From assembly GCA_001938485.1 (NCBI GenBank), contig MQRK01183260.1, positions 1-54,622 of the forward strand: a DNA stretch of 54,622 bases, read 5' to 3'. The stretch is from Girardia tigrina (taxonomy: Eukaryota). Of this stretch, positions 19,332 to 54,622 are shown in pieces. Below the pieces are notes generated by a model. The model did not search any database and was not told where the DNA came from. It saw only the letters and a program-made list of their open reading frames with translations. Each line of letters opens with the position of its first letter. The first letter of the stretch is position 1. The position numbers and the translations under genes are program-made.

Positions 19332-19362
<31 letters not shown>

Positions 19363-22300
19363 TAATAACACTGATATTGTTAAGTACTAAAAGCATTACA
19401 AATTAAATTTGATTTTCTAAATATTTAACAAAATTAATTTCGATCAGCATCTTTGATGATTAATTCATTTTTCTTTCATATTTTCGATATTGTGTAATTA
19501 CAGAATATAAAATATACTTATTATAAACGTTTTTCCAAACTGTTCATTATCTAAAACAACAAAGAGCAGTTTTAAAACATGATAAATAGTTGATGAGAAC
19601 AAAGAAGTCCGTTAAAAGCGGAAGCTGGTTAAAAAGATACAAATGTGACATTAAATTATGTCAGTTTCAGTTAAAATACAATTGTATACACTTTACAAAT
19701 ATTCAAGTTTGAATGGAATATTTTATTATACATTTACGTGACAACCTCCAATTGCCGTTTTATTGGATNNNNNNNNNNNNNNNNNNNNNNNNNNNNNNNN
19801 NNNNNNNNNNNNNNNNNNNNNNNNNNNNNNNNNNNNNNNNNNNNNNNNNNNNNNNNNNNNNNNNNNNNNNNNNNNNNNNNNNNNNNNNNNNNNNNNNNNN
19901 NNNNNNNNNNNNNNNNNNNNNNATATAAAGTCGTCAAACTTTTAGATTTGGTATTGAAACCTTTTATTTCCAACCCTTTGAAAATTAAGGATAGTTTTGA
20001 TTTCAAATATTTTGTCCAGAATCTAGTTGCTTTGACAAATACTGAATGTATGTTTTCTTTTAATGTTAAGTGTTTTTTTACGAATTTACACATTTATGAA
20101 ACTATTCAATTATGGAAAGAAAAGCAGATCCTAAGAACAAGTAACATATCGATTCAGAAACATTATTTAAACTGATATTTATTACGAAAAGGTTTCATTT
20201 CTCTTCAATAAGGAAAGATGGTGTAACAATGGGTCCACTACTCGCTCCAACATTGGCTTCAATTTTCAAGCAGTTCAGTGAAAATCACATATTGGTGAAA
20301 GATCTTCTGTGTATAAAAGATATGGGGATGATACGTCATGAATTTGTGTTTTCATGTTCCCATCGATGGTGAACTTTTCTACAATTCTGCAAGAAAAATG
20401 TCACATCTTATTTGTACACATCTAATTACACATATCAGAATAAAAATAAAAATTTATTTGGAGTCAAGATTTCAAGCAGACACCTTGAAGTGGTTTGATC
20501 GAGTCAATCGGGGTGATAAAATGACTGTCCAGTTAAGGGATTCATTTTATTATGTGATTTGGTGCGATCTAGCTTTGTGATACACGATGGAATCCAAAAC
20601 TATTTGGTCTGGTTCCAAAATATTCAACCGATTAGTTCAATGCCAATTACTGATGCAAATAACCCGATCTTTGAAATGATGTTTCCAACAAAACTTTGTT
20701 ATTTCCAACTTGAAAATTTTGTGCAAGTGTAAGATATCCCCAGTCTGGAAAATCAATATTTTTTAACATTCCTTGTGATAAAAATATAATCAAACTATAA
20801 TTCGTAGAGAATCAAAAAAATTTACTCGTATTTATTACAAAAGATACCAATAATTCATAGAGTGATGATAAATAGATAAAAACATAAATTTGAATTAATT
20901 TTTTCCATCTAATTTATAAATAATCAATAATTAAATGGTAATTGAAAATCAACTTTTTTGTAAAGACTAATTAATCATTTAGACCAGTGATGATCAACCT
21001 AGTCCCTTCCGCCCACTACTGAGCGGTAAGAAGTTTTTGGTTGAGCGTAGAATTTTTTTTCAGATATAAAAAGATTTTTCCTGTTAGTTCAAATAATTGT
21101 CTTTTACAAACAATACATTGTTGAAAATATTATTTAAGAATATTTTATTTATTAGGCATATAAAGCTATAAAAAGACTTAAATAATGCGTACAGATTATT
21201 TGCTCTTGCATTCAGGTGTTTATTGCTTCTTTGTATTCATTTAAATAAGAATTTTTACAAACCATCACACAGAAGAAGTTAAAAACACATCGTTTGCTAT
21301 TATTTTTACACTACTACTTAAAATCATTTTACGTTGCTCCAGTTTAATAATAAGTCCCGGCTTAAATAAACAAACCATAATTCCTGTCTGTAAGAGAATA
21401 ATAGGAAAATATTTTCATGTAAGTGTGATACTGTGTATATAAGATACTTTATTATGATGTAGTAAGTTGTTATACATATTTTTCTAGTGTACTAAAATAT
21501 TATATTTGAATGCTTAAATTGTCTGTAACTGTACTTTATAAATTGTTACAACTTTAAACATTCCTACTTTGTCGATTATCAATACTGTAGAACAGGTGAG
21601 CGGTAAAAATATTTTACTACTAATCGAGATGAAAGAGTGGCAGTAGATATAAAAAGGTTGACTACCACATGATTTAGATAGTTAATTTTATGAATTGATT
21701 CAGGTTTTGTCATCAGAATTATAAATTTGTGCGATATTTCAGATCAATCGACCAACGGGAAATGAGTGAAAATTGTTTGCAAGATTTGCAGCAAATACCC
21801 AAATACACAAACAGACGAAGTGAATTAATATAAACGTGAAAATATTATTCAAAAAAATGTACAAATTTATAAATAATTATGTTTTACATTTTGATAATAA
21901 TAACAATAAGTCTTTTCATGACAAAATCTACATATGTAATTACCTATATAACAATTGTTCAATTGAATTTGCTGAAGGAGAAGTACCAATGAATCTCAAA
22001 ATGATTACAGGAGATTGTTTTTCTTGAAAACAATTAGTGAATGAGGTATCGCATGGCTTTTTGGGATTTGAAAGAGATAATGAAAATTGTTGTAATATAG
22101 ATGCAAGTTTAGCTAAAAATACAGTTTTACCGCATCCAAAACCTCCATGTACTACAATCGAACAATTATAATTGTTATTAATTAACTTAATTGCAGTTTC
22201 CAATTGAACCAATCTTCCACAAAAAAGTTTTGTCTGGTCGTTGCAAAATAACCAATGGTGAACAATCTCCTTCTAAAAGATTAAAATATAGCGATCATTA

Positions 22301-25300
22301 CAATTTTAAATTTGAATTTTATAACCGTTTTCGCTTAAATCTTTCAAAATGTGCTTGATGATCTTAAAAGATTTGATAATATAACTATTTTAATAATTCA
22401 ATAAAAAATATCACTTTAAAAACTCAAACAAAAAATCACATAACATATTTAAATTCGTATTTAATAAATAAAAAACATATTAAAATATAAATACAAATAA
22501 TAATTTTGACACAAATAAAGATTTACTTGACAACTTAAAAAAATCAGGAGCATAATGTAGCATGCTATACTAGATCGATGTTTGGCAACGATGGGACAGG
22601 AGCAGTATCGGATGTTCGACGAAATGCAACCTATCCTCATATTACAAACTCAATTAGAAATAATGTAGATGTCACTCCAACTCTGAACAATTCCCTCATA
22701 GCCAAGAGTAAATGGTCCTTTCAGATTTAAAGTATGATATTCTTCTATTTGTTTCTGATTAACTGATCAATAAAAAGTCACTTTTCAAAGTCATCCTATA
22801 GTGTTTTGACATTCTTCTTGACTAAATTTGTTATCTAAAAACTAAATTTTCTTTTCAAATCTTTGTAGGCCAATTATTCTCCCCCTTTCATTTTGAATTT
22901 TATTTAACAGTTTTTCAACATAGATTTTGTATTTTTTTGCACAAAATTATAAAAGGTAAATTGATATTTCTTTGATATTTATAGATTCAATAATCAAATC
23001 GAAATTTGACTGAGAAGCTGTCAGTAGTTCCAGAGTAGAGAAAAGATCAGTCTATGACTCTTGAGCGTCTATTAGTTGACACAATGATGGTTTCATATGA
23101 TAAAAAAGAGGATAAATTTTGAATAACCAGCTTGTTATCATGGTTTTCTATTAACAAATTTAAATTGTCGGTCGTACAAAAAAAATTATTATTTTCAAGA
23201 AAAATGTACTATCACATACAAATTATACTGACATTTATTCAATATTATACTGACATTTATTCAATATTATAATGACATATATTTTAAAATTCAACAAAAC
23301 TGCCATGGTTAGAAAACAACGAAACACAGGAGTTGAATTGTTATAAATTTAAAGGAGAAGAATAATTTAACGTAAAAAATAGCGGAAACTGTAAATCTCC
23401 ATCGAACAACCGTAAAAAAATTTAAGACGATCCTTAGAATAATGTAGAGTTCAAGCAAGCAAATGTGAAGCTCAAACAAACAATTAAAAGTAAAAATGAA
23501 AATTTTACAACAGTTGAACAACAGATTTTTTAATGTGGTTAATTTTCAAGCGACCTTATATTAGTAAAAATCGCGCAAACCATTTTAAATAATACTGAGC
23601 ACGCAGCTTTCACAATCGACCGTCTGCAGAAAATTGAAGAAATGTAAACGGACAAGAAAGAGACTTACACTTATTCCAATAGGATAAAATTTACATGAAA
23701 AATTGAAGCACGAGTGATTTATGCCGGGGATATTTCAAAAATAATGGATTCGAATTTAGTAGTTTTGACGAACGTGGCTTTAATGAACATCGTCGGCGAA
23801 AATATAGCTATTCTGCGGAAAATAATGCTGCAAGTATTTCCGTCCCGGGAAATAGGAATAAAAATCGAAGTTTGTTGTGTGTTATTAACATAAGTGGCAT
23901 TGTGACATGTGAGTTTAGAATGGGAGCTTTTAATGCAGAATATTTTTAACAGTTCATCGCTTCAAAATTGGTCCCATATTTTTCTGAAAACCCGCAGTGT
24001 TCTAATTATACACAACGCGCCCTTTCACAAAATAGTAGGAAAAAGAAATTTTTTGTTCTTAAATCGGATTAACTTTAAATATCTTGTACCATATTCTCCT
24101 GAGCCTAATGCAATAGAGGAGATTTTTTCAATGTTCGTTTCAAGATTTGATACACTGCGCCGCGAAGAACCCACCAAACTATTGAAGAATGTTTAGCAAT
24201 ATTAACTTCAAATTGGGATGTCAAGAATTTTAATTGTGTGGGGTTTTATAGGAACATGAGAAACAGGCTCGAAAAAGCTTGGAAACGAGAAATGTTTAGT
24301 AATAAAAAATTTTTGAAGATTTACTTTTTTTTATTTTTTTTTTCGTTTTTGGTAGGATGGCGCTAATGTAAATGTTTCATTTTTAAATTTATATTTGATT
24401 TTTTTGAAGTTTGTAACGCTTTAATGTATTTAACTATAATAATATTATTACTGTCATAATAATATTGAATAAATGTCAGTATAATATTACATAATTACCA
24501 GTGTGATATTACATAACTACCAGTATAATATTGAATAACTCTGTAAAACAATTTCTGTTTTATCGTTTTTTTAATTTCTTGAGGAAACAATTATTAAGAT
24601 TTACAAAACCATATAATAAATTATTATATATATATATATATATATGTTGTTTAAATTGATTTAACTTAATTTTATTCTTAAAATTTCTATGAATTTTTAC
24701 TTTTAAAATTAATGTTATGTATCAAAAAAATTTGAAATTTCATTTGTTAATCCATAACACTGCTAATGAACGTGAAGTGTTTAAAAATATGATTAGATAG
24801 TTTTGGTAAGGTGAAGATTATTTACATCAATGGTATCATTTACTCCTAATATTATATCAGCTTGCTCAAATAAGTCATGGGTATCTGGCGAAATTCGTAC
24901 ATCAAGGATCTTTATTTAGTCTATGACAATGCTTTGTCTGCATATCTCTTACATCGATGGAAGCGATTGCAACATCTGGATTTACGCAACAACATCCACA
25001 ATCAGTTCAAATCTTTTTTCCAGTGTTTTTTTTTGTTTAACGACCATGGCATGAAATAATTAAAAGATCTGGTGAATTTTCTTCTCATTAAAGATAAGAA
25101 AATATTCACGGAAAACGCTTGAGGTAGTGTATTAAGAACTATAGGATTTGTGTTGGAAAATAAAACCCATATATCGTTAAGTCTTTTAATTTCTTTTATT
25201 TCTGTAAGAAACTAATGACTTATTTACCTTAATAAGTATATTTACCTTAATAATAATGGCTTATTTACCTGTAGATTGGTCATTGTTCTGTCAAATCTGC

Positions 25301-28300
25301 TAGATCTTACAATTGTCTTCATTTGCTCTGTGATTAGTTCTTTAATATCGCGAATTAAAACTTTGGTCAATTCCTCGAGGTACGTCTTATGAGAAATTAA
25401 ATCAACCGTGACACCAGTCGAAATCCATGGTACAACGAATTTACGAAATCGACGTAATCCAATTTGTTGAATAGATTTCTTGAATTCCAAAAGTGCTTTT
25501 TGTGATGAGGCTTCACAAGTTATTTGATCATCTCTAGTGACATAGTCGATGTACTTTACTGCAGCTTCCGATTGTAAGTCATTCATCAGACCATTCTAAA
25601 AAGACAGAAATTTATGTTCCTTCAAATACATGGTTTCTCAAAATTTATGCTTTTTTAGTCTTTTAAAAATTCATGTATACTTTAGTACGTAGGTTACGGA
25701 AACTAGTACAAAAGAATTTTAGACATAATATAACAGATTAATAATACAAAAATCTGAATTTGAATGTTTCCAATTACATCTCTTAGAAACTTGTAATTAG
25801 AACAGAGTTGTGGCAAACATCATCAAAACAAATGAATTAATATTACAAAAAATTAAGAGACATTGTAAATATTAAATTTATACATATGTATAATAATTCA
25901 TTTAATAAATATATTATTATGTAAATATACCAGAAATTAAATATTAATCGTAATTATTATGATCAATATATTAATAATTAATCAAAATAATAACATTGAA
26001 AAGAGGACATAAATACACATAACTTTAAAATTCTGTTCCCTCAATTTAATGAGTGAGTGAAATATGAAGCGTTATTTATGGTCTTTGAATCCTAAAATTA
26101 ACGTCCAAAACGCACTCTCGATAACTTTATACCTACCATCCACTTTTTCAACTCGATTGGTTGTAAAATATTCTTACCGCCCACCTAATCTACATTATAT
26201 TGATAATTAATAAAGTAGGAAGGTTTAAACAATCGATAAAGTAGAGTTGAGGAACATTGAAGCATACAAAGCAATGTACCTTGTATGTACAGTATCGCAC
26301 CTACATGGAAATATTTTGTTTATTATTCCCTTAAAGACATGAATAATGGTCTGTTTATTTAAACCGGATAAAGCTATTTCAGAATGTGCATGAGAAAAAA
26401 ACGAAATTCATAGTAAATTTCATACAAAGTTTCTATAATTTGTTTTATTGTATTGAACTACAGCAATGTAAAAGGATTTTAAGTAGTGGTGTAAAAAGTA
26501 ATAGCAAACGATGTGCTTTTAACTCCTTTTGTTCGATGTTTAGTAATAATTCCTATTTATATGAATACACGTACAAAGAAGCAATAAAAACCTACACCAA
26601 CAATAAGTTGGGCGATGAATACAAGGTCAAATAATCTGCACGCATCATCAAGTCTTTTTATAACATTGATTTTTTGTACATCAAAACGCAACATATATCT
26701 GTAAAGCTGGGAATCAAATATGCCAAATAAATAAAAATATTCTTAAATAATATTTTCAACAATATATTATTTGTAAAAGACAATTATATTTGAACTAACA
26801 GGAAAAATCTTTTTTATATTGGAAAAAAATCCTACCGCACACTAAAAACTCCTTACCGCCCAGAAGTGGGTAGTATGGACCAGAATGACTATCACTGCTC
26901 TAGGAGGATCCGAAAGCTGATTTTACACTTTGTTTAATAAAAAAGATGTTTTTAAAAAATCTAATGGTCTAAATTTAATATGTTTTGTATTTGATAAAAC
27001 TTGGCAATGTATTCGCTAAAAATTTCAATTATTCATCGTAGTGACCGGCAGTAAACCAGCGAACTATTTTTTTCAAATTCAGAAATTCAAACATAACATG
27101 TTCTCTATTTTGTTTACAAAAAAATTCCATAAGTTCTGAGCACCGATGACAAGAAAACATTTGAAATCAAACCAGCAAATAAAAAAAATAATTAAAAATC
27201 TAATTCTGATTGAAATTAAACATAAAAACAGATTTTAAAAATTAGTAAAAACACTTGGTTTGATTAGTAAAAGAACGCTTTTGGAATTAGAAACTCTCAG
27301 CAATTTCTCTGTGGATTGTCAAACGGCAAAAATCATCTATTTGTATCGAAATATCATAACCGATTTTACGAACACGTGTTCAATGACAATATCTGCTTAT
27401 TTAAAAATCTTTTTTTATCAAAATTTGCGTTTTTGACAATAACGACAATGTTTGCGGAAACGTTCGAAACATTTCCGGACCTCCAAATTCATAATAATCA
27501 TTTTTATGGCATGTTAGAGTTGATTCGACAGAATAGGAATTTTTGAATTTTATAAGAAATTAGAATGCGAAGAAATTTAACTAATTACTACAGAATATCT
27601 TGAACATTAAAATCAATAAATTGATAAAACTATAAAAAGAAAATTACGAAGTCCAAGTTTATCGTTAACAAGAAAAGTTCCTCAGAAGATTTCGATAAAA
27701 ATTATTTAAAAAATAACAATTAATTATTAAAAAAATTAATGTTAAGTAATGATAATTTTTTGAATTTGTGCAATTGTGTAATTGAAAAAAACGCATCGAT
27801 TGGAAAATATACAATTTTATTATCGATTGTAAAATTATTGTTCTTGTAGAAATTGCGTTGGTAAATTTTATTTTTGTTAATCGATTTTCGTTTTATTCTG
27901 ACGCGTGATTTATACTTCGGGTGTTATAAGTAATGAATCCAATCACGCTAACATGATCTTTTACATTATTCTTCTTCAATATGTTATTGTGACAATATGG
28001 CAAAAAATATAGTTTTGATTACAACTTATAAATTATTCCTTCTTTAGATATTACTAGTAGAAGCAATTGCAGTAGTAGGTACGTACAAAAAACATGAGAC
28101 CTTCAAAAATGGTCGCTTTTCTGTAACAAACAAGCTATTAACGTCATTCTATACGATAAGGAAGATAGGTGGAGGTACCAAGAAAGGACTTACCAACAAG
28201 TCAAGTACTGAGAAAAGATACGTGAGAAAACATTGTAATTTGTGACTAATTTTAGAATTTATAATTTTCTCAATCTATTATTTTCCATCTTTTTCAAATG

Positions 28301-31300
28301 CAGAGAGAAAATAGTGAAAACGACCCCCCTTTGTTATCAACGAAATAACCTTGAGTGAATAATTTATGTATTTGATTTATAAAAAAATAATTTATAAAAC
28401 GAAATAATGTAGACAACAATAGTCACAGTTGCTAACTGAAATTATATCATTTTAGTGTTAATTAAATCATTTAGGCAACAAATAATTTAGAAATTTCCCT
28501 AAATAATTTTTACACCAGTAAGTCTTACCAATTGTCGTTCGTACGCCAAACAACGCGCCGCTTGCGCTTTATCAATCATTAATTTTGATCCCATTATAGC
28601 ACTCCATAATTCCGTTTCAGTCACACTTCTTAGTAATTTATTTTTCCTCTCATTTGTTATCATCCGATTGGCACAAGCTATTTTACAAGCTTTTTTTAAA
28701 CAACGTCTTATACTTTCTTCAACCCTCCACCATTCATGACCAGATTCTCTTCTTTTAATCTCATCTTCGAAATCTGCATATTTTGGGATATGGGTTTTAA
28801 TAGGCTAAAAAAGCAAAATTTAATTTTGTTAAAAAATATCAAAAATATACAAAAGATTTATCAAACTTATTTCAAATAAAATTTTATTGTCTGTTTTTTT
28901 AATATTTTAATAAATAACTTAGGAAAACATGAAGTATAAAGTTTATATACAAACAAAAAAAGAAGAGTAATTTATTTTATTTATTTATTTATTTACCCAA
29001 ATTAAATTTCTGTGAAAGATTTTTTCATATTCAACGTATAGAAATATTTAATAGCATTACTCCTATATAATAAAATATAGAAATAATTGATGGAACTAGA
29101 ATTAGTGAGTAAATTATTGAAGGGTTAAGAAAGACTTAACATGTTTGAGTAATGAGAGGATGAATTTAAGATAATTCGGAGTTCTTTCATTCAATTTTAA
29201 AGAGAAAATTTATTTGTACAGGCATATTTATCAATGTTTTAAAATATGTTCAATCTTCTATCAATAGCTGTGAGAAAATTATATCACCCTTATAAATATT
29301 AAATTGTCGAATAACCTCACACAATTACAATGGGGGCAGTTTTAATTGCATAATGAGAAAAAAAGACATGAAATATAGAGAATAATTTATTTCAATAGGA
29401 ATTTGTACCTCCCTTAGCTCGCGAAAGTTGTTTCACACGGCGACACATGCTTTCAGGTACACCAGAACAAAAGTTACGTATGACAGAGGAGGAAAACCAT
29501 ATTTCCTGACATGTTTCCCACAATGCCTCCTTGGGAACATTTCGTTTTCGAACCTCACGTTTCAACAGGTTCCAGACTGTCTCTATCAGATTTATGTCTG
29601 GGCTGTTTCCAGGCCAAGAAAACTCGGTTACTCCATTGTCCTCCAAGTGTGATCGCGTTTTTCTTGAGGTGTGGCATGGTGCGTGGTCTTTTTGGAAGAC
29701 CCACTCCTCAGTGCCATACCAGTTCTCCGCCTGTGGGAGAAGACGGGTGTCAATGTTGGGATGCTATTGACCATTCCACCCTGTGTATATATCAAGGTCC
29801 TCTGCTGGAGATGCATCCTTAGAATATCATTCGACGAGGATATTCTTGACGACTTTGTACATGTCCTTGCTGAATCATATCTCTAGTACTTCTTCGAAAA
29901 AATTGGCTCCTGTGGCGACCTGCTTCCATTATTGTCTCATCGGTGAAGACAACCTACAATGAAACCAGATCAAGATATGATGATCCATGTAATACGAATA
30001 ATAGAATTTTATTACTGTACTCATTACAGTATTTATGTTACTCCATTTGTCCGCTGTCCAGTGCGCATACTGTTTGACCCACTGAAGTCGTTGTGCCATC
30101 ATTCGATTTGTGAGCAATGGAACCCTCTTTGGTCGATAGGTGAATCGTCATGCATGTTGCAAATGCTCTCGAATTCAACGTGCTGATACATTAGATGCAG
30201 GCTCGCTAATTGTTTCTTTCATTTCCACTGATGTCATTTTCGGACCCATCTTGCTGAGTATGATGATTCGAATTGAAAGGCGGTCTCCAATGAGCATTTT
30301 TCTATTACACCGGCGTTTCTTCTGATTTGCAATGCCCCCAGTCTGTTGATGTTGTTTTAGCAGACGGGACACTGCAGATTGGGAGCAGCCATATTTATAG
30401 CAATTTCAACTTGTACTTTGGATGTGAGGGTAGCCAAAGCACTATCTGTGTACGCTGTGTACCAGTCAAGTTCATGATAATGGCAATTCTTGGAACTTTT
30501 AGAAAAAAACTTAAAATAGAATTATGATGTCATTTTGGCACCCTTTACAATTGAATTGTTTGATTAATGTATACTGCAAGTAGACACATCGACTTAATCA
30601 TTTTTACAACACATTAACAAGGAAAATGTTATAATATATGAATTTTCAGGATTATACAAATAAAACCGCCCCCATTGCAACTTGAAGTAATAAAAGCTTA
30701 TATTTTAGTTTAAAAAAATAATATTGTAATTTTTTCAATGGTGAGCTTGATAAATCATAAGGAAAATGTTTATAAATCGTTTTAATAGCACTTTAAATAT
30801 GATTTTCAAAATATTAAACTTTTGTAATATATACGTACTGATGAAGGTTAAATAAAATCTCATAAAAAATAATTATTTATTCTTACTAGTAAAATATGAA
30901 CTGGAGGTTGAGCATTCTCATCTTTCACAAACCACTTAGAAAATACCGATGCTTCCTTTGGGAAATTTTCTAAAATAATTTTATAAAGCATTTCAAATTC
31001 AGAGCTCGGCAATTCATTTGGAACGGGTCGATATCCATATCGGTTGCCAATTAAAAGCTAAAATAATAAATTAATAATAAAATAACTGTTATAATGCAGT
31101 CATAATTTTAATTGTTTTGACTGATGAAAAAAAAGTTATAAGTGATTCTTTACGTTGATTAATTTAAAATATATATTTCTTGCTATCAAAAACTTAATTG
31201 TATCAAGAAAAACACGAATAAATAAAAATTAAATTTAAGAAACAATTTAAAAAGAGAATTCGAAAAATTTTTGTACAATAGTGCAAAAAATGATGCCATA

Positions 31301-34300
31301 ATCTCAGAAAATATAATAAATCCTTGTAATAATATTAGAAAGGAGAAATTGAAAGAAGCACAAGAAACGTTCGATATTTAACAGAATCGTTTGACAATCA
31401 GCCTAGGAAATCAGAAAGTTACCCTTCATTAAGAGCTATATAAAGGTAAACATTCCAAATTTCTAAATCGTACAGTTTCTACTTAGTTTCATCATATATA
31501 TTTGCTTAAAGATGCCGTTCCTTTCTTTAAAATATCTTTAGAGTTTGGCCATATTTTTGCGTTGTTTATCATCCACTCAAATTTTTAAATTATGGGAAGA
31601 TTGAGAGAATTGATTATTTCTTAAATAATATTTTACAAAAGAAAGTCTTAAAAGATATTCAGGTGTTCTCAACTCCTTGGATAAAACTTATTTTAGTTAC
31701 GTTGATGAAAAATGACAAATAAACAAATCTCACAAAAGAGTAATTTCAATTAAATTTTCAAACATTTTTTAGTTTGTCTGTTGATGCTCGCGAGCTTATA
31801 GATTTTTAAAATACCGTAAAATATAAATTATTTAAAGAGATTATTATTTAAAAGTGTTAATAACTATTAAAATATTATTTAAGATAAATAATCATTTAAT
31901 AAATAGTTAATAAGTTAAAAAAATATAACGTTATAAGATATAGATTTTAAAATTTTAATAAACATAAAATAATGTTTTAATAAGAAATAAGAATTTAAAA
32001 TTAATAAGTTGCAATAAGGTTTTAATAAAAATATAAAGAATTTAAATTTAATAATTTACGAAGATTTTAATAAAAAAATAAGAATTTAATAATACTAAAA
32101 TTATTAAGTTGAAATAAAGTTTTTAATAAAATATATTTACATAAATTTAAGATGATTATAAAATTATATTTATATTTATTCTTCTTTCTGATTCGTACAA
32201 AATAAGAAAAGAAGAAAAGAAAACATTACTCTCGAGTTAAACAACCCATGCTCAGAATGGTAGTCACTCCAGAGAACAGTCCTCACCGTCGGTACAGCAG
32301 TCAACGTTAAATCGCATCTGTATTGTGAATTTCAAAGGGTTCAATATTTTAAAGGAAAGTCGCTTTAAAGGTTATTACAGAATCAAATGTCATAAACTGA
32401 CGGTCAATCATAAACAAAACCAGGTTTCAAAATCAACAGAACTCATTAATCGACATTGAGTTGATGAAAACTGGCAAACCGTATGGCTCTCAGATGAGGC
32501 TACCTTCAATGTAACACCTGCTTTGAACAGAATAAACACCTCTATCGAGCAAAATTGATTTAAAAATCGTTTTTGTTATAGAAATATATTTTTACGTGTT
32601 ATGACTTAAATTAATGATTTCGAACCTAACAATGTCAAATAGTTTTTTCAACTTAAGTGCTTCCCAACAAATAAGTGTTCCCAACATTTGCTGATAGCCT
32701 TTGCAGATTCATAATAATTCTTTGAAGAATTATAATTCCAAATCGACGGCATCAATTTTTACTTTAAATCAAAGATAAATTTTCTGATATTCAAAATGTT
32801 GGAAATCCAATTATTTTGCAGATTTAGAAATTAGCTACGGTAAAACAAAATATGAAGATAGCCTGCTTAAAAACAGAGTAGTACTTAAAATACTGTTAAA
32901 TGACCCCAAAATGCCTGCCTATTGAAGATCTAAAATTTGTTTGACATAAAGAGACTCGGAAACTAAAGTGAACATTAAGATCTTTCATACGCAGGAATTC
33001 GTTATTTATTTCGGGACTTAACACATAAACTATCGAGAATTTTTTATATTACATGGTGTCAAGGAGAAAATCAAAGAATTTTATGAAACCAAAGTGTATT
33101 TAATTAAACATGTGATAAAGGCAAACAATTATATTTACATAAATAAGCTTGCTGTTCAGAGGTGTTCAAAATGTCCTCCGTCCTTGTTGCAACACTTTCG
33201 AGGACGTGGAATCCAGGAAGCTCTGGCCTTGAGAATTACTTCCATGCCGATGTTCTGTTATGCGAGTAGTAAAGCACTTTTAAGTTCATCAACGGTGTTA
33301 ATAACGCTGTGTACTGCTTGCGAGTTTTGAAGAAAAATTTACCAGATGCTATAGTCCATAACATTCAGGTCGGGACTTTTAGATGGCCACTCAGAAGGCC
33401 TGATGAACTGAGGTGTGTTCTTCACTAACCAGTTAACTGTAACCGTAGCCGCATGAGGTTTAGCCTCGTCTGGTTGCCAAATTCATTCTTCAGCGTCCAT
33501 TACATCACTGATATCCCTAAACATCAAGGGACACATCTCATCACGATATACAGTCTGGTCGATTGTTTTCTTCTTTCCTTTTGAAAGAACCATATTGTCT
33601 TTACCTTCAGAGAATCCATCGAGGAAACATAACTCAGTTTTCTCATGTCAAGATACACTGGTATAGGTCATTATTGAGGGTTCTTGTTTATCAACTTCCA
33701 AACTCATGTTTAGATATCTCAGTTTATATTTAGACTGCTCGATAGAGGTGTTCATTCTGTTCAAAGCAGGCGTTATATTGAACGTAGCCTCATCTGAGAG
33801 CCATACGGTTTGCCAGTTTTCATCAACTCAATGTCGATTAATGAGTTCTGTTGATTTTGAAACCCAGTTTTATTTATGATTGACCGTCAGTTTTTGACAT
33901 TTGATTCTGCAAAAACCTTTAAAGCGACTTTCCTTTAAAATATTGAACCCTTTGAAATACACAATACAGATGCGATTTAACGTTGACTGCTGTACCGACG
34001 GTGAGGACTGTTCGCTGGAGTGACTACCATTCTGAGAATGGCTTGTTTAACTCGAGAGTAATGTTTTCGTTTTCTACTTGTTCCTTTCTTACGCATTAAA
34101 GCAGCGGTCACACCAATATTCTTCAGTTTATTACACACAGCATAAAACTAATTTGCAATAATATCAACAAACACTGGAAAGAACTTCGGTGCACTTTTGC
34201 AAGCCCAAAGTAGGATGTTCCTTTTTAAATAGAGAAATTACATTGCGTTGAAAATCAGTCAACTGTGGAGTCATTTTCTAAAGAAAAAAATAAATAATGA

Positions 34301-37300
34301 AATATATCATGTGCTATATAATTATAGGACAGAAATATTAACCAATCAGGGGTAGTCAATCACGTATTTATCGCGTGCTTAATTAAAGAAATAAAATGCT
34401 TTCGTTTTCTGCTGTATATAAATACCGATCACTGGTGACTCCCACGGCAGTCCACCTGTTAATTTCACAAAGTAAGAATTATTTTGATAGAAACTACATT
34501 GCAACAGAAAACTGCAGCTGGATAAAAATTGTACAATTTTGATAAACTATTTATAGGTACTATTAAGATTGAATGTGAATATATAACGTGGTTGATATTT
34601 CAATTTCTTGAGTATGAAGGCTTCAATATTGACCGAATTTTCATGTGACTTTACAGTTAATAAATTTGCAAAACCGTGTTTTTACAAAGTAAAATAACTA
34701 TAGTCTGTAAATGAAAAAAGTATTATGATTATTGTCTAAGTAAAAATTTTTGAGTGAACAAATTTTTACTACAAAAAATGGTCCAATCGACATTTTTCGG
34801 CATGTTTCGATTTCTTTGATGCATAATTTTTCAACCAAATGTTCATTTACTGCAGAATCTGTTATGCCCCATCTCATATCACACAATCTCAGATTCAAAC
34901 CATAATCATTACATGTAGATCGAAGTTCAGGCAGCACTTGTTTGACGAATGCGTTTCTCTCAACCTATAAATATATGATTAAGAAAAGACTATAAAACTC
35001 CAAAATATACTATAGATATATGTATTATTAAGAACACAAATTTTAATATTTTTATAAACATAACAAGTTTGTTTGTCCTCAAGACAATTTTTATCAAAAC
35101 TTTCGTACGATTGCATTCTAACTAATTGATTAATGACTTTAATCTTATTTGAGCAAATGGAGAATTATATAAATTGTTAAAATATTTATTCCAAAATTTT
35201 ATTGGTTAAAATTTAAATGATTATTTATTATTTAAAAAAATATTAATTTAATTTATTTATTTAAATTTGTAAATAAAATTAATTAACTTATTTAAAATTA
35301 TACAATTATTTTAAATTATAAATAAATATTACATATTTTCAGATAATAAGAATTAAAGTATTAATAAGCCATCTGGATAAGAGAGACAATGCCCAAATCA
35401 ATATAAAAAATTCAAACACAAAACACCATCAATGTGTGAAGTGCACAGGTCTCAAATATTTCACTTCACAGAAAGCTACTTTTTTCTGAAGCAAAACACA
35501 ATGCGTGGGAAGCGCTTATCTGATGACCTTGTGCGTGTCATTTACAGTGACCTTTCCATCTCTGTCCATGCTGCTCACAGTGCCCTTCATCGTCGAGTGT
35601 CTCATTCTACGCAACAGAAGAAGAAAGAACTTGGATATCCACAAGTCACAACAAGTGAAACTGACCACCACATTCGTCTAGTCATGAAGCGAGAACGATT
35701 CCGCAGTACAACCAGTTTGGCCCGTGAGTTTGGAATTGGCCGGTTGTCCATAAATCGCCGTGGAAATGAGACTGGAGTTTCCTCATGGATCGTAGTAAAA
35801 GACTACCTTACCCAACGACATAAAATAGCCAGACGGAATTGGTGTCGCTCTCATTACCACACAGACATCCGTGCGTGGTTTATCTCGGATTAAATCTCTT
35901 TTGAGCTCGCGGACTGTAGTGCACAAAGGCGTGTTTTTTTTCATCGACGGACACATGAAAAGTTTGCCCCATGTTGTGTTATACCTGTTTCACTAAAAAT
36001 TCGTCAAGAACTGATGGTCTAGTGGTGTATCGCGAGTAATGGTGACGAAACATTGTACTTCATTGATGGCAACATGACTGCTACACACTACACAACTATG
36101 TTAGAGGCATAACTTGTGCCTTTCCTTTAAGATCTTCCACTCAATCTACCGGCGTCATGGGTTTCGACAAGACAACGTATCACCACGTTCAATTCAATTA
36201 AACGATAAAGAAGTTTACTCAATCGTCTCAGTTGTAAATGCTCATTAACCCTAGTTTTGAGATGAAGATTTGTCTCTCCAATGTACGAATTTCGATATAA
36301 CTTTTCAATAGCCGATATACCATTTTAAACCGTTAATGACCGGGGATATGTATTTGTGATCACCATGCGTCTTACCGCTAGTGATTGGATGTCAGTTTTT
36401 AAGATCGTGTTTCTGTCCACCATTGGTAACCGGGTTTGCGAGATTTAATTAAAAAATTTCAAAAAATAAAAACGATTAATATAAAATATACACAAGAAAA
36501 AAGAAAATGACAATGACTTATGTATTTGGATACATAATTAGTAAAATAAATAATTAAATAATAATAATATATTTTTGAAAATTCAATCAAATTAATAATC
36601 TTAAATGTCAATAATGTTAAAATTTTCACTTTGTGTGGTTTAATAGTAATCGAAAATATTAGTCTGACAATTTCTGAATACTACAACCATTAGTGTCAAA
36701 AGAATAGAAAAATGACATTGTTGATTCTAGATGACACAAAAATATTTTTTTAACAAAAGATAATTAAATTAAATCTATTAACATAAATCTCAAATATGAA
36801 ATAATGAATTTGTAAATAATTTAAAAAACAATGAAAATTTTAAATCATTAAAAAATTTTGACGGTGATTTTTTCGAAATTTATTTTTATAATTAATTGTT
36901 ATCGTCACACTAAATTATTATTATTATCTTTTCAGCATATGTTTGAAAATGATGATTATGTTATAAAGCTTCTTTTTAAAATTTTTTTAACACAAAAGTT
37001 AAGTGTGAAGCTTGATTATTAATTTTCAGTTCAATTTTTCATTCTAATAAAGACTTCATATGTCATTGTCTCCCAATAATTTTTAAATTGATAACACATT
37101 ATTAGGAGAGAGTGATGCGTGAGATCAATTTTTAAGATCGATTTTTCTGAAAATTAATATTCAAGCTTTAGATTCAACTTTCTGTAAACCATTTTCAAAT
37201 AGAACCAAATGTACTTATGTGTATCTTATAGTACTTTTCATGCCCATATAAGAAATGGCTTCAGATTTGCTCCATCGTGTATACATGATCAAAAATACAT

Positions 37301-40300
37301 ATCATCGGTCATTAAAGTCTTAAAATGGTATATCGGCTATTGAAAATTTATATCGAAATTCGTACATTGGAGAGACAAATCTTCATCTCAAAACTAGGGT
37401 TAATGAGCATTTACAACTGAGACGATTGAGTAAACTTCTTTATCGTTTAATTGAATTGAATGTGGTGATACGTTGTCTTGTCGAAACTCATGACGCTAGG
37501 AGATGGAGTGGAAGATCTTAAATGAAAGGTACAAGTTATGCCTCTAACATAGTTGTGTAGTGTGTAGCAGTCATGTTGCCATCAATGAAGTACAATGTTT
37601 TGTCACCATTACTCGCGATACACCCCTAAACCATCAGTTTTTGACGAATGTTTATTGAAACAGGTATAACACAACATGGGGCAAACTTTTCATGTGTCCG
37701 TCGATGAAAAAAACACGCCTTTGTGTACTACAGTCCGAGAGCTCAAAAGAGCTTTAATCCGAGATAAACTACGCACTGATGTCTGTGTGGTACCTATATG
37801 AAGTACCTATACGCCGTATATATACTATATGAAGTAATTATACGCCGTATAGGTACTAAGAAATCGAATATTTTTTCTTTCCTAATAATGTAATTTACGG
37901 CTAATGGCTACCTTTAGGTCTTTTTTATCGTGAGATCATCATAACACAAAAATTCAAGGATAAATATACCCGATAAATCTAAACATGCTTATATACACTC
38001 AAATAATTTGGATTATCTTGTTATTGATATTGTTGGTTTTAATTACTTTTTAAAATATTTTTCGTTAAATATCCCTTTGTGACTATTATTTTTATTGTTT
38101 TAGACAATTTTAGTTGTTTTCTGAGATTTTTGAACGCAGATCGAAATTAATGTGTAAAAATGTCGAAACAGTATTGAAATATTTTGTAATATCTGCGGTG
38201 TATTCACTTCTAAAACTCAGAAAATTATTATGACTTTTCTAGTTAGGAAGAGCTATAAGCTCTATTTCGGATTTAATGTTGGAGAACTGAACAAATCATG
38301 GGTTCCTCGTGTTTGCTGTACCTGTGTTGAAACATCAGAACATGACTTAAAGGTACTAAGAACTCCATGCGTTTTCCATTCCTATGGTATGGCATGAGCC
38401 TAAGGATCATGTGACAGAAAGTTATTTCTGCTAACAAAGGTTTCTGGATTTTCTGCAAAGAATAAGAAGTTCATCATGTATCCCAATTTAACATCGGAAA
38501 TGAGATATGTATAACACAAAAAATCTCTTCCTATGCCCAAAACTCCATAGACCTTAGCCGTTTTGGACGAAGAAGAATATAACGATGTTGCAGTGAGAAA
38601 CATGGAAAAGGTTGGTGATATCAATAATACAAACTTTAAGCCTTCCACTTTAAGAAGTCCTCATTTCTATTAACCAATCTGATTTAAACGATGTCATTAG
38701 AGATTTGAGATGGTCAAAGAGAGATGCTGAATTACTGAGTTCAATGTTGCCAGAATGGAATCTTCTATCACCTAGATCCATTTCAGTTTTTCGCAACCTT
38801 CAAAAAACTTTAAACTCGGCAAACTCGGACAGTTGCAATATTTGTTTCTGCACAAACATTGATGGATTATTAGGAAAGTTCTCAGAGACCAAAATTTTGA
38901 TGGATTGTTACAAGAAGTTGAGTAATTGCATGGAATGCGTTTAAGGATGTAGTCCAGAATTTCCTCGGTAACAACAAGGTTCTAAACTATGTACAGTTAG
39001 TTTAACATACGATCAAAGCATACATGTAGATTAAATGTAACATGGCCCTCAAATTACATTTCCTACACTCGCAACTCGACTTCTTTCAAACAAATCTTGG
39101 TGATGTTAGTGACGAACACAGAGGAAGATTTCACAAGGACATTATCGTAATAGAGAAAAAGTTTCATGGGAACTGGGATGAATCTAAGGTATATGGCTAC
39201 AGCTGGAATCTAATCAAGGACAAATCAGACAATGCTTCTATTAAGAACAACAATATGACTTTTAATATTTTTATTAATAATACAAGTTTGATTGTCCTCC
39301 AGACAATCTTTGTCAAAGCATACGTAAAAATGCATCCGTCTGATTAATTAATGACTTTAACCTTATTATCTGAGTAAATGAAGATTATATAAATTGTTAA
39401 AATACTGTTTTCAAATTTTATTGGTTAAAAATTAAAATAAATAATAATTATTTAAAAAATATTAATTCAATGTATTTATTTAAAAATTGTAAATAAAATA
39501 AATCAACTTATTTAAAAATTTATAATTATTTTAAATTAGAAATAAATTCAAACATTACATATTTTTAGATAATAAGATTTAAAATATTAATCAGTCATTT
39601 GATTGGGAGAGACACAATTCCAAATCAACATACAACATTCAAAGACAAAACATCAAACATTCCAAATATTCTTCACGGCCTTCAAGATAAAATCTTTTGT
39701 AAAACATTTTAAAATTTATATTAAAAATATAATATTTTACTGCAACAGGAATTTTTTTGTGTTTCCTGGGTGTTCGCTAAATAATTATATATGATTAATA
39801 TTAAGAACAGCAATATGGGTTTTTGAACATTTATTTTCAATACAATTTGAATTGTCCTTTGGACAACTCTCAGCAAATCTTTCAGAATTTGACATCGTTC
39901 TACATTGATAAATTTTTGTTAATGTTTTTTAATAAACAATTATTCGAACAAATTTTTCATTATTTTCAGATTTGATTTTTAGAGTTCAAATTTTGTAATT
40001 TTAGTCATAATTTTATCTACATATTAATTTTATTTAAAAAATGATTTTATGTAAAGAAAGAACATTTATTTAATTTAATACTTAGTTAAAGCAATTTACT
40101 AAGTACTTTATTTAAATTTGTAATATTAAAATTTGAAACGATTTAATATTTTTAAAGTTTTTTAAATATCTGATGCTGTACTTTAAAATGCAAATTATAC
40201 TCGAATAATTATTCATCGTGAACACCCAAAATATCAATTTTCCATCTGGGTGGGAGAAACACATTTCCAAATACTAAATTCAACATACAAAATTCAACAT

Positions 40301-44390: not shown

Positions 44391-45372
44391 TATTACTTTC
44401 TTTTATTTTAGCAAATTTTGTTTTATAGCTTTAAAAAAAAGGGAATAAATTATTTTAGAAGATAAAAAAATTATTCTAGAATATAAATGAATTAAAGTAG
44501 AAGATAATTTTTTTGAATTATACCAGCAGATAAATAATTAAAACTGAAGATAAATGTTTTTGTTTTAAATTTTAAAATTAAAGTTTTAATTTAAATTTAA
44601 AAATTTAAAAAGGTTAAAATTTAAAAAACAGGCAAAATAAATTGTATTACTATTATTTGTAAATAGAATTTTAATCAAAAAGCTATGAACTTAAAACATT
44701 TCAAATTACCGGACCAAGATGATTCCAGTGAAGAAGAATTCATCGAAATCCCAAAACAACCAAAAACATCTCAGCAAGAAAATAAAAATAGTGCAAGATC
44801 CAACAATAAGCGGGGAAAAAATACAACGTACGAAAAGATAAAAACATTTAGTGATAAAGACGATGCTAAAGACTATGCTATGCAAGACAATTCATGGGTG
44901 AAATTAGATCAACCGGACTGCCAAACTAAAGGAATCAAGCAATTCTACAAATGTAAATTCAAAGATTCTTGTGGATGCTCAGGCAAAATGTTCATAATTT
45001 TTCACCGCGACAAAGAAAGTGTGTCAGTGTATCGATTAGAGACAAAAAACAATGAGCATGTGAAGCTAAACAATTGTGGAATACTGCATGAGATAAAAGA
45101 AGTGATTGAGGCCATAATTGTGGACTTTCAAAAGCCAGCTCAAATTAAAGAAAAACTGGAAAATAAATTTCCTAATAGACTGCTGCCTAATTGGATTCAA
45201 ATACGCAACTTCACCGAGACAATCGAGAAAAAAAAGGGATCCAAAGCATGCATTCATTTAGAAGAATTAGATAAATGGTGCAGTGCGAGAAGCCAAATCC
45301 CAGACAACCAATGTTTAGATCATATTTACGTAAGGCATCAATGTGGCAGTGAAGTGAACCCATCAACAGGTA

Positions 45373-47582
45373 TATTAAGAACACCAATTTGATTTTTTAT
45401 ATTTTTATTTAAACAACAATTTTGATTGTCCTCAAAACAATCTTTGTCAAAACTTTCTCTTATTCTTTTCAATCTATCTTCATCAGAAGGGCTATCTCTA
45501 ATAGCCAATATGCTATCGATATTTGACTCTTCTTTCTTCAGTTTTATTCCAAATTTATCCAGAAAATCTATACCAGCAATCATTTCCGGATCTATTTCTT
45601 TGACAACATAAAACTCTATTGTTTTCTGTACCCTTTCTATTATCACCTTTAATTNNNNNNNNNNNNNNNNNNNNNNNNNNNNNNNNNNNNNNNNNNNNNN
45701 NNNNNNNNNNNNNNNNNTAATCTGAATATTTTTCATACCTTTGATTAAATCCGCTTTAATGACATTCACTCGGGCTCCTGTATCTAAAAGACACTGAACA
45801 TTTTTATCTTTTATACGAAATTCTACACTTGGCCGTCCATTCAAAATTTTATAATTTATGTCAAACTTTGCAATTTTTAATATATCTGTTGCAATATTTC
45901 TTTTCTTTCTTTCTTTTTCAATATCCATGTTATCACATTTTTCATTATTTTCTTTATTCAAACTATCTAATTCACACATTTCTAGAAGAATATTTTCATA
46001 CATACAATCAAAAATATAATCACACACACATTCATATGCACAATCAAACATACATCTGCATTGACTTTCTAATGAAGCACACTGATCACCTCTCCCTGTG
46101 ATCGTGCATCCTCGTTTCCCTGATCATCTCTGAACTTTCTGTAACCTCTGGGATATTCTTGTCTTTTAGAATCTTCTTTTCTATTGGTTTCGTCGGTATA
46201 ACCCCGTCTTGAAGAGTTATCTCCTTCATACAATTCATCGTCTAATTCGTCCAATTCCGCTACTGAATATTTCCTATTTGTGTACGTCGGACGGTCTCTA
46301 TATCTTTGATTCGAGCATTTTTTCCTATAATTTTCCCATCGATTTCTTCCATTATCCCGTTTCCATTGCTCGCGTTCCTTAAACCTATTCGGGTTTTCAT
46401 AACATTGTGTTCTTATGTGTCCATTTTTATTGCAATGATTACATGTCACATTTGGACAATCTCTTCTAACATGTCCTTCTTCATGACATGCCCAACAAGT
46501 AATTTTCCTGACTCTAAAATTTCTTCTTGTATCTTATGGAATTTCTCTATTCCGCAGCCTTGTTCTCTTTTTATTTTCCACTGTTTTCCATTCATTTTCT
46601 CTTTTTGTATTATATGCTGCCACTGGTGCATTTCTTTTCTTTTTCTCGTGTTCGAACATTCTTGTTTGTATTTCTTCAATCTCATCGGATTTTGTAATAC
46701 CTTGAATGGCTATTTGTTTTTGTACATCATCATCATCTATTAAGTTAGCGCATGCTAAATTCGATAGTTCTTTCTTACCTAGCTTTTTCTCTACCAATTT
46801 CTCTATTAGTTCGTCTGCCTTTCTAAATATTATTGTGGGATCGCTGGAGCCAATTCTCAAATCTAACATTTCTTTCANNNNNNNNNNNNNNNNNNNNNNN
46901 NNNNNNNNNNNNNNNNNNNNNNNNNNNNNNNNNGTTTCACCGGGCGCTGTTTCATACTTGATTATTGCATCCGGTGTCATGTATGGCGTGACTAAAAGGA
47001 TTTTCCTTTCCTCAGAAAATCCCATTATCTTCGCGTACCTGTTGAAATTCTTTATAAATACTTCCGCTTTCGTCTCAGATCCGTCGAATGTTTCTGGACC
47101 TTTGATATTCGGAGTCACGTGATCGTGTGTCGCCATATTAAGAACACCAATTTGATTTTTTATATTTTTATTTAAACAACAATTTTGATTGTCCTCAAAA
47201 CAATCTTTGTCAAAACTTTCGTACGTTTGCATTCAAAGCGANNNNNNNNNNNNNNNNNNNNNNNNNNNNNNNNNNNNNNNNNNNNNNNNNNNNNNNNNNN
47301 NNNNNNNNNNNNNNNNNNNNNNNNNNNNNNNNNNNNNNTAATTAAAATGATAATTAATTATTTAAAAAATATTAATTTGATTTATTTATTAAATATTATA
47401 AAACTTAATTAACTTATTTAAAATTTTAAAATTATATGAAATTAAAAATAAATTTAAGCATTACTTATTTTTAGATAATAAGAATTAAAACATTAATCAT
47501 CCATCTGGGTAGGAGAGACACATTTCCAAATCAACATACACATTCAAACACAAAACATCAAACATTCAAAATATTCCTCACA
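45373..47582 (-). mobile_element. Gypsy LTR retrotransposon (family A), internally deleted: 5'LTR 47136-47582, PBS, gag with two CCHC knuckles, protease, partial 3'LTR
   Basis: Perfect TSD AGGTA; PBS TGGCGACACACGA; CWACHEEGHVRRDC and CNHCNKNGHIRTQC; LLDTGA; RT/RH/IN lost by a deletion joining pol to the 3'LTR near 45457. Confidence 0.93.
46075..46120 (-). promoter_or_regulatory. -1 programmed ribosomal frameshift signal (gag to pol)
   Basis: In-frame G GGA AAC heptamer (46120-46114) followed by a GATCAC/GTGATC hairpin; -1 frame open into the protease ORF. Confidence 0.8.
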
Positions 47583-52699: not shown

Positions 52700-53308
52700 A
52701 ATGCAAATTGGAAACTGTATTTATTTTCCAATGCACGCAAAGCTACATCATATGATTCATCGCTGAATCCATAACTTTCTACGATTCGTTTAACTTCGCC
52801 TACGACATATTTAAGTAGGTAAAATAATTTATTTTTCTTGTTAGTGGTCAAGTCATCGATACACGATTGTAATATCGCCTTCCAATCTGTGTAACTCGCT
52901 ATATCACTTACAAACATAGGTATCTGAAGTTTCTCAAATCCTTCTAATCCTGTATTCACTATTTCTTTTTTGTGTACGATTGTACTTGTTCCATTCTTTA
53001 TCTAGTAATTTTATTTCATAATTTTTTCTCAATAGCAACTCGATCTCCATATCAACTAGCTCCAATTATTCCAACTCATTTTCTAATTTCTCTACTTCTT
53101 TTCATTTGAGATACCGAGCTAATGTTATCATATTTTGGTATTCATTTTGTATTTCTTCATATTTCTCTCTATATTTATTATTAAGTAATTTCCACTCCTC
53201 ATTAGTGTTCACATCGTACAATTTTCTCCTCGAATTAACCAGTTGTACTCTCCAACCGTTCTTTTTATTCAATTTTTCCGCTAACTGTCTTGTATACTCT
53301 TCGTTTCC
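52700..53308 (-). mobile_element. BEL/Pao gag remnant (coiled-coil region plus DUF1759-like)
   Basis: KLQIPMFVSDIASYTDWKAILQSCID...KLFYLLKYVVGEVKRIVESYGFSDESYDVALRALENKY; stops and one frameshift. Confidence 0.85.
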
Positions 53309-53536
53309 TCCACCACAGAGACGAAACATAATGTCTAATGCAGTATGTTTTACTATCCCACTTTCTCGTATGGTCTCATTTGCCTTCCATTATCGACCAG
53401 CTATGATCAAACGTTGTTGGTCTGTTGGGATTCCTTCTCTATTTTTAATTTTTAATATAATACTTTAAATGGTACCTTCGAATGATACTTCCACAGTAAT
53501 GGTTTTCCCTGAAGAAATTTTGCAGAATATTTGGAA
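53309..53536 (-). pseudogene. Ubiquitin-like domain (76 aa) fused in frame to BEL/Pao gag
   Basis: FQIFCKISSGKTITVEVSFEGTI*SIILKIKNREGIPTDQQRLIIAGR*WKANETIRESGIVKHTALDIMFRLCGG; ungapped 35/76 identity to ubiquitin; in-frame ATGs at 53542, 53566 and 53620. Confidence 0.9.
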
Positions 53537-54016
53537 TTTCATTTTATCTTCATTTGATTTTTCCATGTTTTGATAAAGGTTTTTCATTGAAACGATTGTG
53601 ATAGAATTCTTTTGATTCATTACTTCCTAAAATTTATCGATTAATTTTCCTATTATCCAGAAACATGTTTTCTTGTTTTTTAATATTATTAAGTTCATAA
53701 TAATTATTATTATCTGCATTATCATTATTATTATTTTTACTTTTATTATTTTATTATTATTTTTGATTTTATTATTGCAAAAAGTAATTTTAACAAATAT
53801 TAAAACCGAATTTTTCATATTTTTTGTATTTTTTTTGTTAAATTTACATGGAGGAGTAATCCAAAAATTCATAAATTACTATCAATAACCCAACAGTTTT
53901 TATTTATAGTTTTAAGATCCAAAATAGAACCATCATTGCGATAACCCATAATAAATAATTTTTTGAAATACATTTAAGATCTCTTATTTTGTAGATAAAA
54001 ATCGATCAAATGGATT

Positions 54017-54525
54017 TGTTACGACTCCATATTCTACATCAAAACCCAGACCCCTTTCACCATTTCATTGTCCAGTGCGCACGAAAGTTTGTTGGAGTGT
54101 GGGGATAGTCAAACTCGACTATCCCCGGTGATTTTAAATGACCTCGTGCGCACCGGATATGGAGTGGGATAGGAGGTCCTGGAGAATTGATGCCTCCACC
54201 ACGGAGTCCCTTGTGCTCACTGAAGCCTTTGAATAACCTAAAATAAAAATAGAAAATTAATAAATTAATTAAGCTAATTAGCAAACTTGAATAATTGAAA
54301 GTCCACGGAATAGGCGACCATTGTTTACCTTCGTGGTAAACTTCCCGCCAGGCAGGATGTTGCGGATTCGACCATCAAACGGTGCAGACGAGTTATTACC
54401 ACGGTGTTTATTCCGTGACTTCCTGGCAAATAAACGTTTAACTTCGGTAGGGTATAAATACCCAAGTCGGTTCGCACATTAGCTGCCAGTTACACAATTT
54501 ATTATTGTGAGAAGTGGTTGCAACG
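54017..54525 (+). mobile_element. Possible solo LTR
   Basis: TGTTAC...GCAACG ends, GC-richer body, TATA-like GGTATAAATA; no TSD found. Confidence 0.35.
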
Positions 54526-54622
54526 TCTATATCCGAATTCATTTTTTTAAACACCAAAATTTTCTTAATATAACAATTCACATTTCTAAAACAAATTTTC
54601 CTGTTAATTTAATTTAATTATC

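Follow-up and report, generated by a model that had tools for sequence, protein, structure and literature searches.

A ubiquitin domain in front of Gag in BEL/Pao-type retrotransposons of Girardia tigrina, probably a spacer cut by host deubiquitinases

A contig of Girardia tigrina (GenBank MQRK01183260.1, assembly GCA_001938485.1; its full 54,622 nucleotides are hereafter the window) carries close to its end a broken reading frame in which a ubiquitin-like domain runs directly into a retrotransposon Gag. This raises the question of whether the fusion is an accident of one locus or the property of a mobile lineage and, if the latter, what ubiquitin does there. What the window contains is a dead remnant, ~1.1 kb long, of a BEL/Pao family designated A (53776-52714, minus strand; Table 1). 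Neither LTR nor pol is present in the fragment, and its homology to sister copies stops at 52717-52714. As originally predicted, the 76 codons can be aligned gap-free with ubiquitin of the same genome and are interrupted by TAA at codons 24 and 49; no stop follows G76 and the frame continues as GNEEY into a helical stretch of Gag that holds two further stops. The Pfam score of the ubiquitin domain, obtained with stops read as X, was above the cut-off, and its tail reads RLCGG, not RLRGG. The proposal that the two TAA codons lie one substitution from Glu24 and Gln49 of ubiquitin failed against the family, in which those residues occur in 0/31 and 0/33 family A entries. A single frameshift had also been proposed; the frame is indeed broken, but by two gaps of one base each, at about 52993 and 52969, in comparison with locus L021. 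The expected DUF1759-type Gag was recovered in the next frame (PF03564), with 24.7 bits just missing the cut-off of 25.4. An alternative genetic code was considered for the TAA codons and rejected, since at these positions the sister copies have no stop when read with the standard code, and the window copy additionally has a TGA and frame gaps.

Table 1 Features of the family A fragment at the end of the window
Feature	Position	Strand	Basis or remark
AT-rich family A leader, recognisable 5' end	53600..53776	-	84% match to L022, L026, L028 at -319..-135 from ubiquitin Met
Leader end, before ubiquitin	53543..53596	-	2-base gap near 53564
ATG AAA (Met-Lys), possible second start, adjoining the ubiquitin domain	53537..53542	-	sequence
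Ubiquitin-like domain, 76 codons	53309..53536	-	PF00240 E 2.6e-10; 35/76 identical to host ubiquitin
TAA, ubiquitin codon 24	53467-53465	-	sequence
TAA, ubiquitin codon 49	53392-53390	-	sequence
RLCGG tail; predicted cleavage after second Gly (53309)	53309..53323	-	sequence for the tail; cleavage putative
Gag N-terminal helical domain	52994..53308	-	common to all families; helical in sister-copy model
TGA within Gag helical domain	53104-53102	-	sequence
TAA within Gag helical domain	53068-53066	-	sequence
Two one-base gaps breaking the frame	52969..52993	-	alignment to L021
DUF1759 capsid region, start	52714..52905	-	PF03564 E 2.6e-5; fragment ends ~52714

The window copy may have split off early within family A, because its identity to the nearest sisters is ~89%, its ubiquitin has the host residue at six positions where most family A sisters differ, and a 75-nt histone H1 piece of the sister copies is missing from it (between 53600 and 53596). 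Neither poly(A) nor a target duplication was found at the ubiquitin-Gag junction or in its flanks in the window.

Ubiquitin before Gag is a trait of the lineage and not a chance juxtaposition. A DNA search of the genome itself gave 48 matches at 83-90% (40 of 193 candidates scored), and ubiquitin was joined to the Gag helix in all 20 best loci, that of the window included. The corresponding protein search (150 of 2074 candidates scored) exposed a larger sister family, B, at ~45% identity, whose ubiquitin is nearly identical to that of the host, yet ends in RLCGG; the junction was stop-free in 18 of the first 30 protein matches. Ubiquitin stands directly before the same Gag helix domain in at least four families of the genome, represented after removal of near-identical rows by 33 (A), 28 (B), 5 (C) and 17 (D) entries. 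Among 20 distant loci picked by Gag similarity, ubiquitin preceded the Gag helix in 17, and the other three were missing the upstream part of the element. No relative without ubiquitin was found among those in the genome; there is therefore no outgroup, and it is the host gene that indicates the direction of gain. The families also recombine, because family A and some D copies share a near-identical capsid but differ in the helix domain (pS 0.17 vs 0.87). Beyond the assembly, the junction was spanned by contigs from two public runs, X1 and X4, whose organism codes differ; X1 may be the source sample and X4 is possibly an RNA run. From a further run, X18, 0 reads were placed. Word-index searches outside the genome found only two proteins, P0005 and P0032, both carrying PF00240 plus PF03564 and each a single-member cluster. 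A profile search with ubiquitin plus Gag returned mainly polyubiquitins, the whole query being covered by one of the best 150 matches (P0032). The word-index searches hint, weakly, at a narrow range of the layout outside this genome. A one-off ubiquitin retrocopy beside a Gag fragment, the contrary case named in the original prediction, or an assembly error might have been suspected from a broken window copy devoid of LTRs, but is refuted, with a negligible chance left to it, by the identical junction in the 20 best loci, in the X1 and X4 contigs and in the two outside proteins.

The proposed capture of ubiquitin by a BEL/Pao lineage was borne out: the domain recurs in numerous independent copies that possess LTRs and target duplications of 5 bp. 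Family A LTRs read TGGTT...GACACCA at both ends in L025, L027 and L030 and measure about 450-780 bases; those of family B read TGGAG...TCCA. The 5-bp duplication was exact in two of the three complete A copies (CTTAT, AGCAA; not exact in L027) and in 7/10 B-type LTR loci, these ten being the ones, out of 25 examined, with both ends found and no preceding polypurine tract. The A LTR is followed by the primer site TGGCGACCACGCCAGGAC, for which 26 exact junction matches were counted against 0 in the control; a complementary tRNA 3' end was found at 18 places, and ARAGORN called a tRNA-Arg at one of two loci. The polypurine tract GGGGGGAGAA precedes the 3' LTR. PF03564 was above the cut-off in L021, L027 and L028, PF05380 (Peptidase_A17) was detected in L028 (E 3.4e-20) and PF18701 (DUF5641) in L021, and the family B copies L074 and L081 match the pol of L028. 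L028 itself contains ubiquitin, DUF1759, CCCH fingers, protease, RT and Peptidase_A17; by eye, a protease motif is followed by a YMDD-bearing RT and PF05380, and the position of the integrase core is occupied by N gaps. The elements would thus be filed under BEL/Pao by their Pfam domains, and they are generally built as an LTR containing 5' coding pieces of host genes, then the primer site, a variable leader, ubiquitin, Gag, protease, RT and RNase H. No envelope gene was found in Pfam scans of four copies. CCHC knuckles are usual in BEL/Pao Gag proteins; in L022, L027 and L028, Pfam detected none, and the Gag fingers are of the CCCH type (PF18044, PF00642, PF18345). The two CCCH fingers of these three copies are possibly another captured host piece. 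Non-autonomous copies also exist, a long coiled coil replacing most of pol in family A (L021, L024, L027); a coiled coil in place of pol was likewise seen in L031 and in the B copies L078, L083 and L084.

Upstream of ubiquitin the elements are a mosaic of host gene pieces: the LTRs contribute RPB10, 14-3-3 and ankyrin, the leader contributes Hsp90 and histone H1. Several copies have a single frame that extends from inside the 5' LTR, across the primer site, for ~250-450 codons into ubiquitin. The stop-free run before ubiquitin comprises 247 codons in L031, 293 in L072 and 360 in L076, all of them AT-rich leaders, and for each of the three 0/2000 simulations were stop-free. In L076, no stop interrupts the stretch that leads from an RPB10 piece of the LTR across the primer site and an Hsp90 piece to ubiquitin; in L039, the ubiquitin frame has 2 stops vs 52 and 41 in the other frames. 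Among copies with a primer site, the interval from there to ubiquitin was fully open in one of five B/C copies and in none of six A copies. The view of ubiquitin as a leader of Gag therefore needs qualification: it does precede Gag, but for the most part sits inside the coding sequence, preceded by a long open frame whose beginning lies in the LTR. The absence of Met1 from family C and its relatives L143, L144, L160 and L161, E-type copies included, speaks against a simple N-terminal leader.

Pfam identified the pieces in B-type LTRs as RPB10 (E 7.7e-13), 14-3-3 (7.3e-42) and ankyrin (4.3e-7). The N-terminal 14-3-3 piece occurs in B-type LTRs at no fewer than 150 loci (150 scored of 975 candidates); the LTR motif stood at its end in 18 of 25 loci examined, several pieces start at Met, and they are in frame with the LTR end. 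All 150 scored matches span the query unsplit at 84-100%, and no split host gene was seen by which intron loss could be judged; the piece is presumed to derive from mRNA. Many of the 14-3-3 loci (L183-L207 and 125 further) are solo LTRs with 5-bp target duplications, and most are stop-free. A piece in the LTR of L080 presumably resembles EB1, for which there was no Pfam match. Families B and C carry ~95 Hsp90 codons in frame before ubiquitin, 85-90% identical at the DNA level to the host locus L102, with remnants in L084, L082, L087, L165, L149, L154 and, weakly, L160; homology to Hsp90 DNA was undetected in A and D leaders. In family A, the piece before ubiquitin derives from a host histone H1 gene (PF00538, E 3.7e-24). 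Both the Hsp90 and the H1 pieces have been captured and re-copied. The Hsp90 piece of L084 and L141 is nearer to the host gene than that of other B copies (L084 89.9% vs L082 85.6%), and L021 has a longer histone H1 piece (977-1126, 150 nt, 90% to host locus L176), perhaps by renewed copying.

Ubiquitin itself has been re-copied in part. At codons 2-54, family B differs from the first host unit of L095 in about 1 in 10 same-residue codons, vs about half in comparison with family C; codons 56-76 match C, with 1/21 differing between L082 and L087 (p 1e-4). This block pattern and a Gag-helix tree in which B is nested inside C imply that family B swapped in codons 2-54 of host polyubiquitin and kept its own tail. 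The glycines of that tail are widely preserved, G75 in 30/33 family A entries and G76 in 32/33 (A), 28/28 (B) and 16/16 (D). The canonical LRLRGG end is absent from A and B, where Cys occupies position 74 (RLCGG) in 32/33 and 28/28 entries, respectively; R74 is found in 12/15 D entries and in L088, L149 and L160-L162; D and E keep RLRGG. We assume that R74C in A and B may slow cleavage. Codon 74 of family D reads CGA in 12, CAA in 4 and TGA in 1 of 17 entries, which resembles the outcome of CpG decay. Of the 16 old loci that could be read, five (L150, L151, L153, L154 and L159) have lost an intact GG, which decay could explain. The suggestion that cleavage would free a Gag beginning with Gly holds for family A alone, as Ser follows GG in B, C and D.

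Constraint along the frame was assessed by simple Nei-Gojobori counts, taking variants in at least two copies as a proxy for changes in multiplying elements; capsid and leader counts within families were filtered for non-homologous flanks, and five partial rows were excluded from pN/pS counts of ubiquitin against the host. With shared variants including recurrent changes and copies being non-independent, shared N/S for ubiquitin was 17/15 (A), 10/10 (B) and 17/15 (D), a dN/dS of about 0.3 within families, in line with the prediction of a value below 1. Shared and single variants of ubiquitin differed when A, B and D were pooled (p 0.016; A alone, p 0.195). For the leader, shared N/S was 24/4 (A) and 25/6 (D), a dN/dS of 1.1-1.4, and the leader differed from ubiquitin in N/S (A, p 0.011; D, p 0.032; pooled, 0.0005); the Hsp90 piece of family B, with a shared dN/dS of 0.33, was lower than the A and D leaders. 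Judged by these counts, the A and D leaders are open but unconstrained and drifting, and ubiquitin is constrained; ubiquitin and the Gag helix domain did not differ (p 0.39). Between families C and D, ubiquitin had pN 0.18 and pS 0.65 (dN/dS 0.14; capsid 0.16). Between A and C, pN was 0.37 in ubiquitin and 0.22 in the Gag helix, the A ubiquitin diverging faster, and on this comparison the family A ubiquitin is relaxed. All 17 sampled host units fell outside a single clade (100/100) that comprised the C, D and E-type ubiquitins; these ubiquitins had pN 0.09-0.13 at saturated pS. The dN/dS of 0.08 of family B against host ubiquitin was set aside as proof of selection, since the block test shows recent re-copying.

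A fold model of the family A domain reached pLDDT 85-95 over residues 1-70 with ubiquitin as the top fold-search match, a partly circular result in that the alignment held true ubiquitin; the single-sequence model was poor (pLDDT 52). The ubiquitin of L031 has other residues at positions 8, 42, 68 and 70, keeps I44 and GG, and is predicted to retain the ubiquitin fold, with the same partial circularity of the alignment. The suggested role as an ESCRT-recruiting or decoy module accordingly fits family A poorly, given the altered positions of L031 next to its preserved GG.

From these comparisons, the ubiquitin domain is probably a spacer that host deubiquitinases cut after Gly-Gly, freeing Gag from interchangeable leaders. 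The frame would be translated from a start within the LTR, host pieces would have entered by template switching to packaged host mRNAs, and the cut after GG would release Gag(-Pol) with the same N-terminus irrespective of the leader; with the Gag N-terminus fixed in this way, leaders could be swapped without spoiling the capsid. An open frame of free sequence, followed by a conserved ubiquitin with GG and a conserved Gag, is how a removable leader would look. A bolder form of the idea, to which we give slightly less than an even chance, is that the LTRs keep capturing the 5' ends of abundant host mRNAs together with their start codons (14-3-3, RPB10, ankyrin), translate Gag-Pol from them and shed them by way of a ubiquitin that is both cut and refreshed by the host; if true, ubiquitin would be the enabling part of a mobile shuffler of gene fragments.

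Translation might instead begin at the Met at or beside ubiquitin position 1 that families A, B and D possess, where it could therefore start; the domain would then serve expression or folding as an N-terminal leader that is cut off, and the upstream mosaic would be a 5' UTR or the product of a minor start. The ATG two codons ahead of the domain in the window copy and family A, Met1 in B and D, and the unconstrained residues of the leader are consistent with this, but it leaves unexplained both the missing Met1 of family C and its relatives and AT-rich leaders of 247-360 codons that are stop-free in the ubiquitin frame only, against the simulations, and we regard it as rather unlikely. Ubiquitin could also be retained on Gag as a binding, trafficking or decoy surface for ESCRT, the proteasome or deubiquitinases, R74C slowing the cut on purpose. 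Fixation of R74C in the two best-sampled families would suit this explanation, as would the re-copying of codons 2-54 in B with its own RLCGG end kept, the conservation in B, C and D of far more than a cut site alone might need, and the budding driven by engineered Gag-ubiquitin fusions in the experiments of Zhadina and Bieniasz (2010; PMC2958808). However, the fusions described in that part of their work lack GG and need L8 and I44, whereas L031 is changed at 8, 42, 68 and 70 and keeps GG; D and E retain RLRGG, and the scanned copies have no envelope gene. A retained surface is thus unlikely.

The remaining explanation, that ubiquitin is a passenger among captured abundant mRNAs, kept by the need for an open frame and by homologous re-copying from host mRNA, draws on the refreshed ubiquitin of B, the Hsp90 and H1 pieces that were captured and re-copied likewise, and the dN/dS below 1 of the B Hsp90 piece. 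It is disfavoured, and very improbable in our estimate, in view of the C, D and E-type ubiquitins that stand as one clade apart from the host units with low pN at saturated pS; moreover, the other leader pieces decay to remnants, but ubiquitin is whole and in the same place in every family.

LTR elements normally rely on a protease of their own to process the polyprotein. With a ubiquitin-Gag fusion that is natural and long maintained, the first cut would be handed to the host, and this arrangement would be fixed across a lineage rather than confined to single pestivirus strains. In cytopathic pestiviruses (BVDV Osloss, CP1 and CP Rit), as presented in the relevant passages of PMC8310069, captured ubiquitin similarly lies in a polyprotein behind unrelated host sequence and before a viral protein; in CP Rit, a piece of a ribosomal protein precedes a truncated ubiquitin and cellular hydrolases make the cut. 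There, ubiquitin is a processing signal of single RNA-virus strains; here it is fixed across families with saturated synonymous sites and stands before Gag, and the cut is a prediction. By this analogy, the BEL/Pao variant likely works as the pestivirus ubiquitin signal does. The engineered Gag-ubiquitin of PMC2958808, in the constructs described there, also joins both proteins in one chain; in contrast to those constructs, the natural domain keeps GG and has a changed surface in family A.

Capture of host mRNA by template switching is established for LTR elements, according to the sections of Tan et al. (2016; PMC5131818) on retroposition, which report partial mRNA pieces, multi-gene chimeras and repeated copying (maize Bs1 is cited there) as well as, in one mosquito case, a flanking BEL element, all resembling what is described above. 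In the cases treated in those sections, the captured piece replaces element ORFs and gives non-autonomous copies, whereas here, in copies with pol as well, the pieces precede an intact Gag in frame and ubiquitin marks the boundary. The planarian Burro giant gypsy elements likewise combine an LTR polyprotein with host-derived domains, some linked to ubiquitination, but are gypsy rather than BEL/Pao; the passages on their domains in PMC6431247 list MATH, BIR, ankyrin and BCL2 and name no ubiquitin moiety. The elements share with Belpaoviridae, as characterised in the main text of the BEL/Pao survey (PMC3118150), TG..CA LTRs, a 5-bp target duplication, a tRNA primer site, a polypurine tract, DUF1759 Gag, protease, RT, Peptidase_A17 and DUF5641, and a size within 4.2-10 kb; they differ in having ubiquitin before Gag, a frame that starts in the LTR, host pieces in LTR and leader, and CCCH fingers. 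CCHC knuckles are not clade-defining in the survey's relevant passages, and the word 'ubiquitin' occurs 0 times in its main text. Full-text literature searches brought up no description of ubiquitin in a BEL/Pao Gag; supplements, the family tables of PMC3118150 or Repbase could hold one.

A ubiquitin spacer would explain how in-frame host pieces can change without harm to Gag. The hundreds of 14-3-3, Hsp90 and ubiquitin fragments spread in the genome would confuse annotation and could feed small-RNA cross-talk with genes of the host. RLRGG vs RLCGG tails, and host-like vs diverged ubiquitins, offer a natural series for the requirements of deubiquitinases.

The window contains further elements. 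On the minus strand at 45338-47232, gag, zinc knuckle and protease fragments, which we take to be Gypsy-like, are accompanied by a direct repeat of 86 nt whose copies at 45372 and 47135 are identical. Scattered exon-like frames at 15990-28804 (minus strand) include a P-loop (GGFGCGKT) and a Walker-B-like motif and presumably resemble NACHT/WD-repeat proteins. Two elements with long inverted ends of 428 and 374 nt lie at 35935-37713 and 32191-34096, respectively, and the segments at 29392-29763 and 35381-35893 are, we assume, Tc1-like transposase fragments. At 54503-54620, the window has a 98-99% match to a repeat in L032 that is also inserted in the ubiquitin region of L035.
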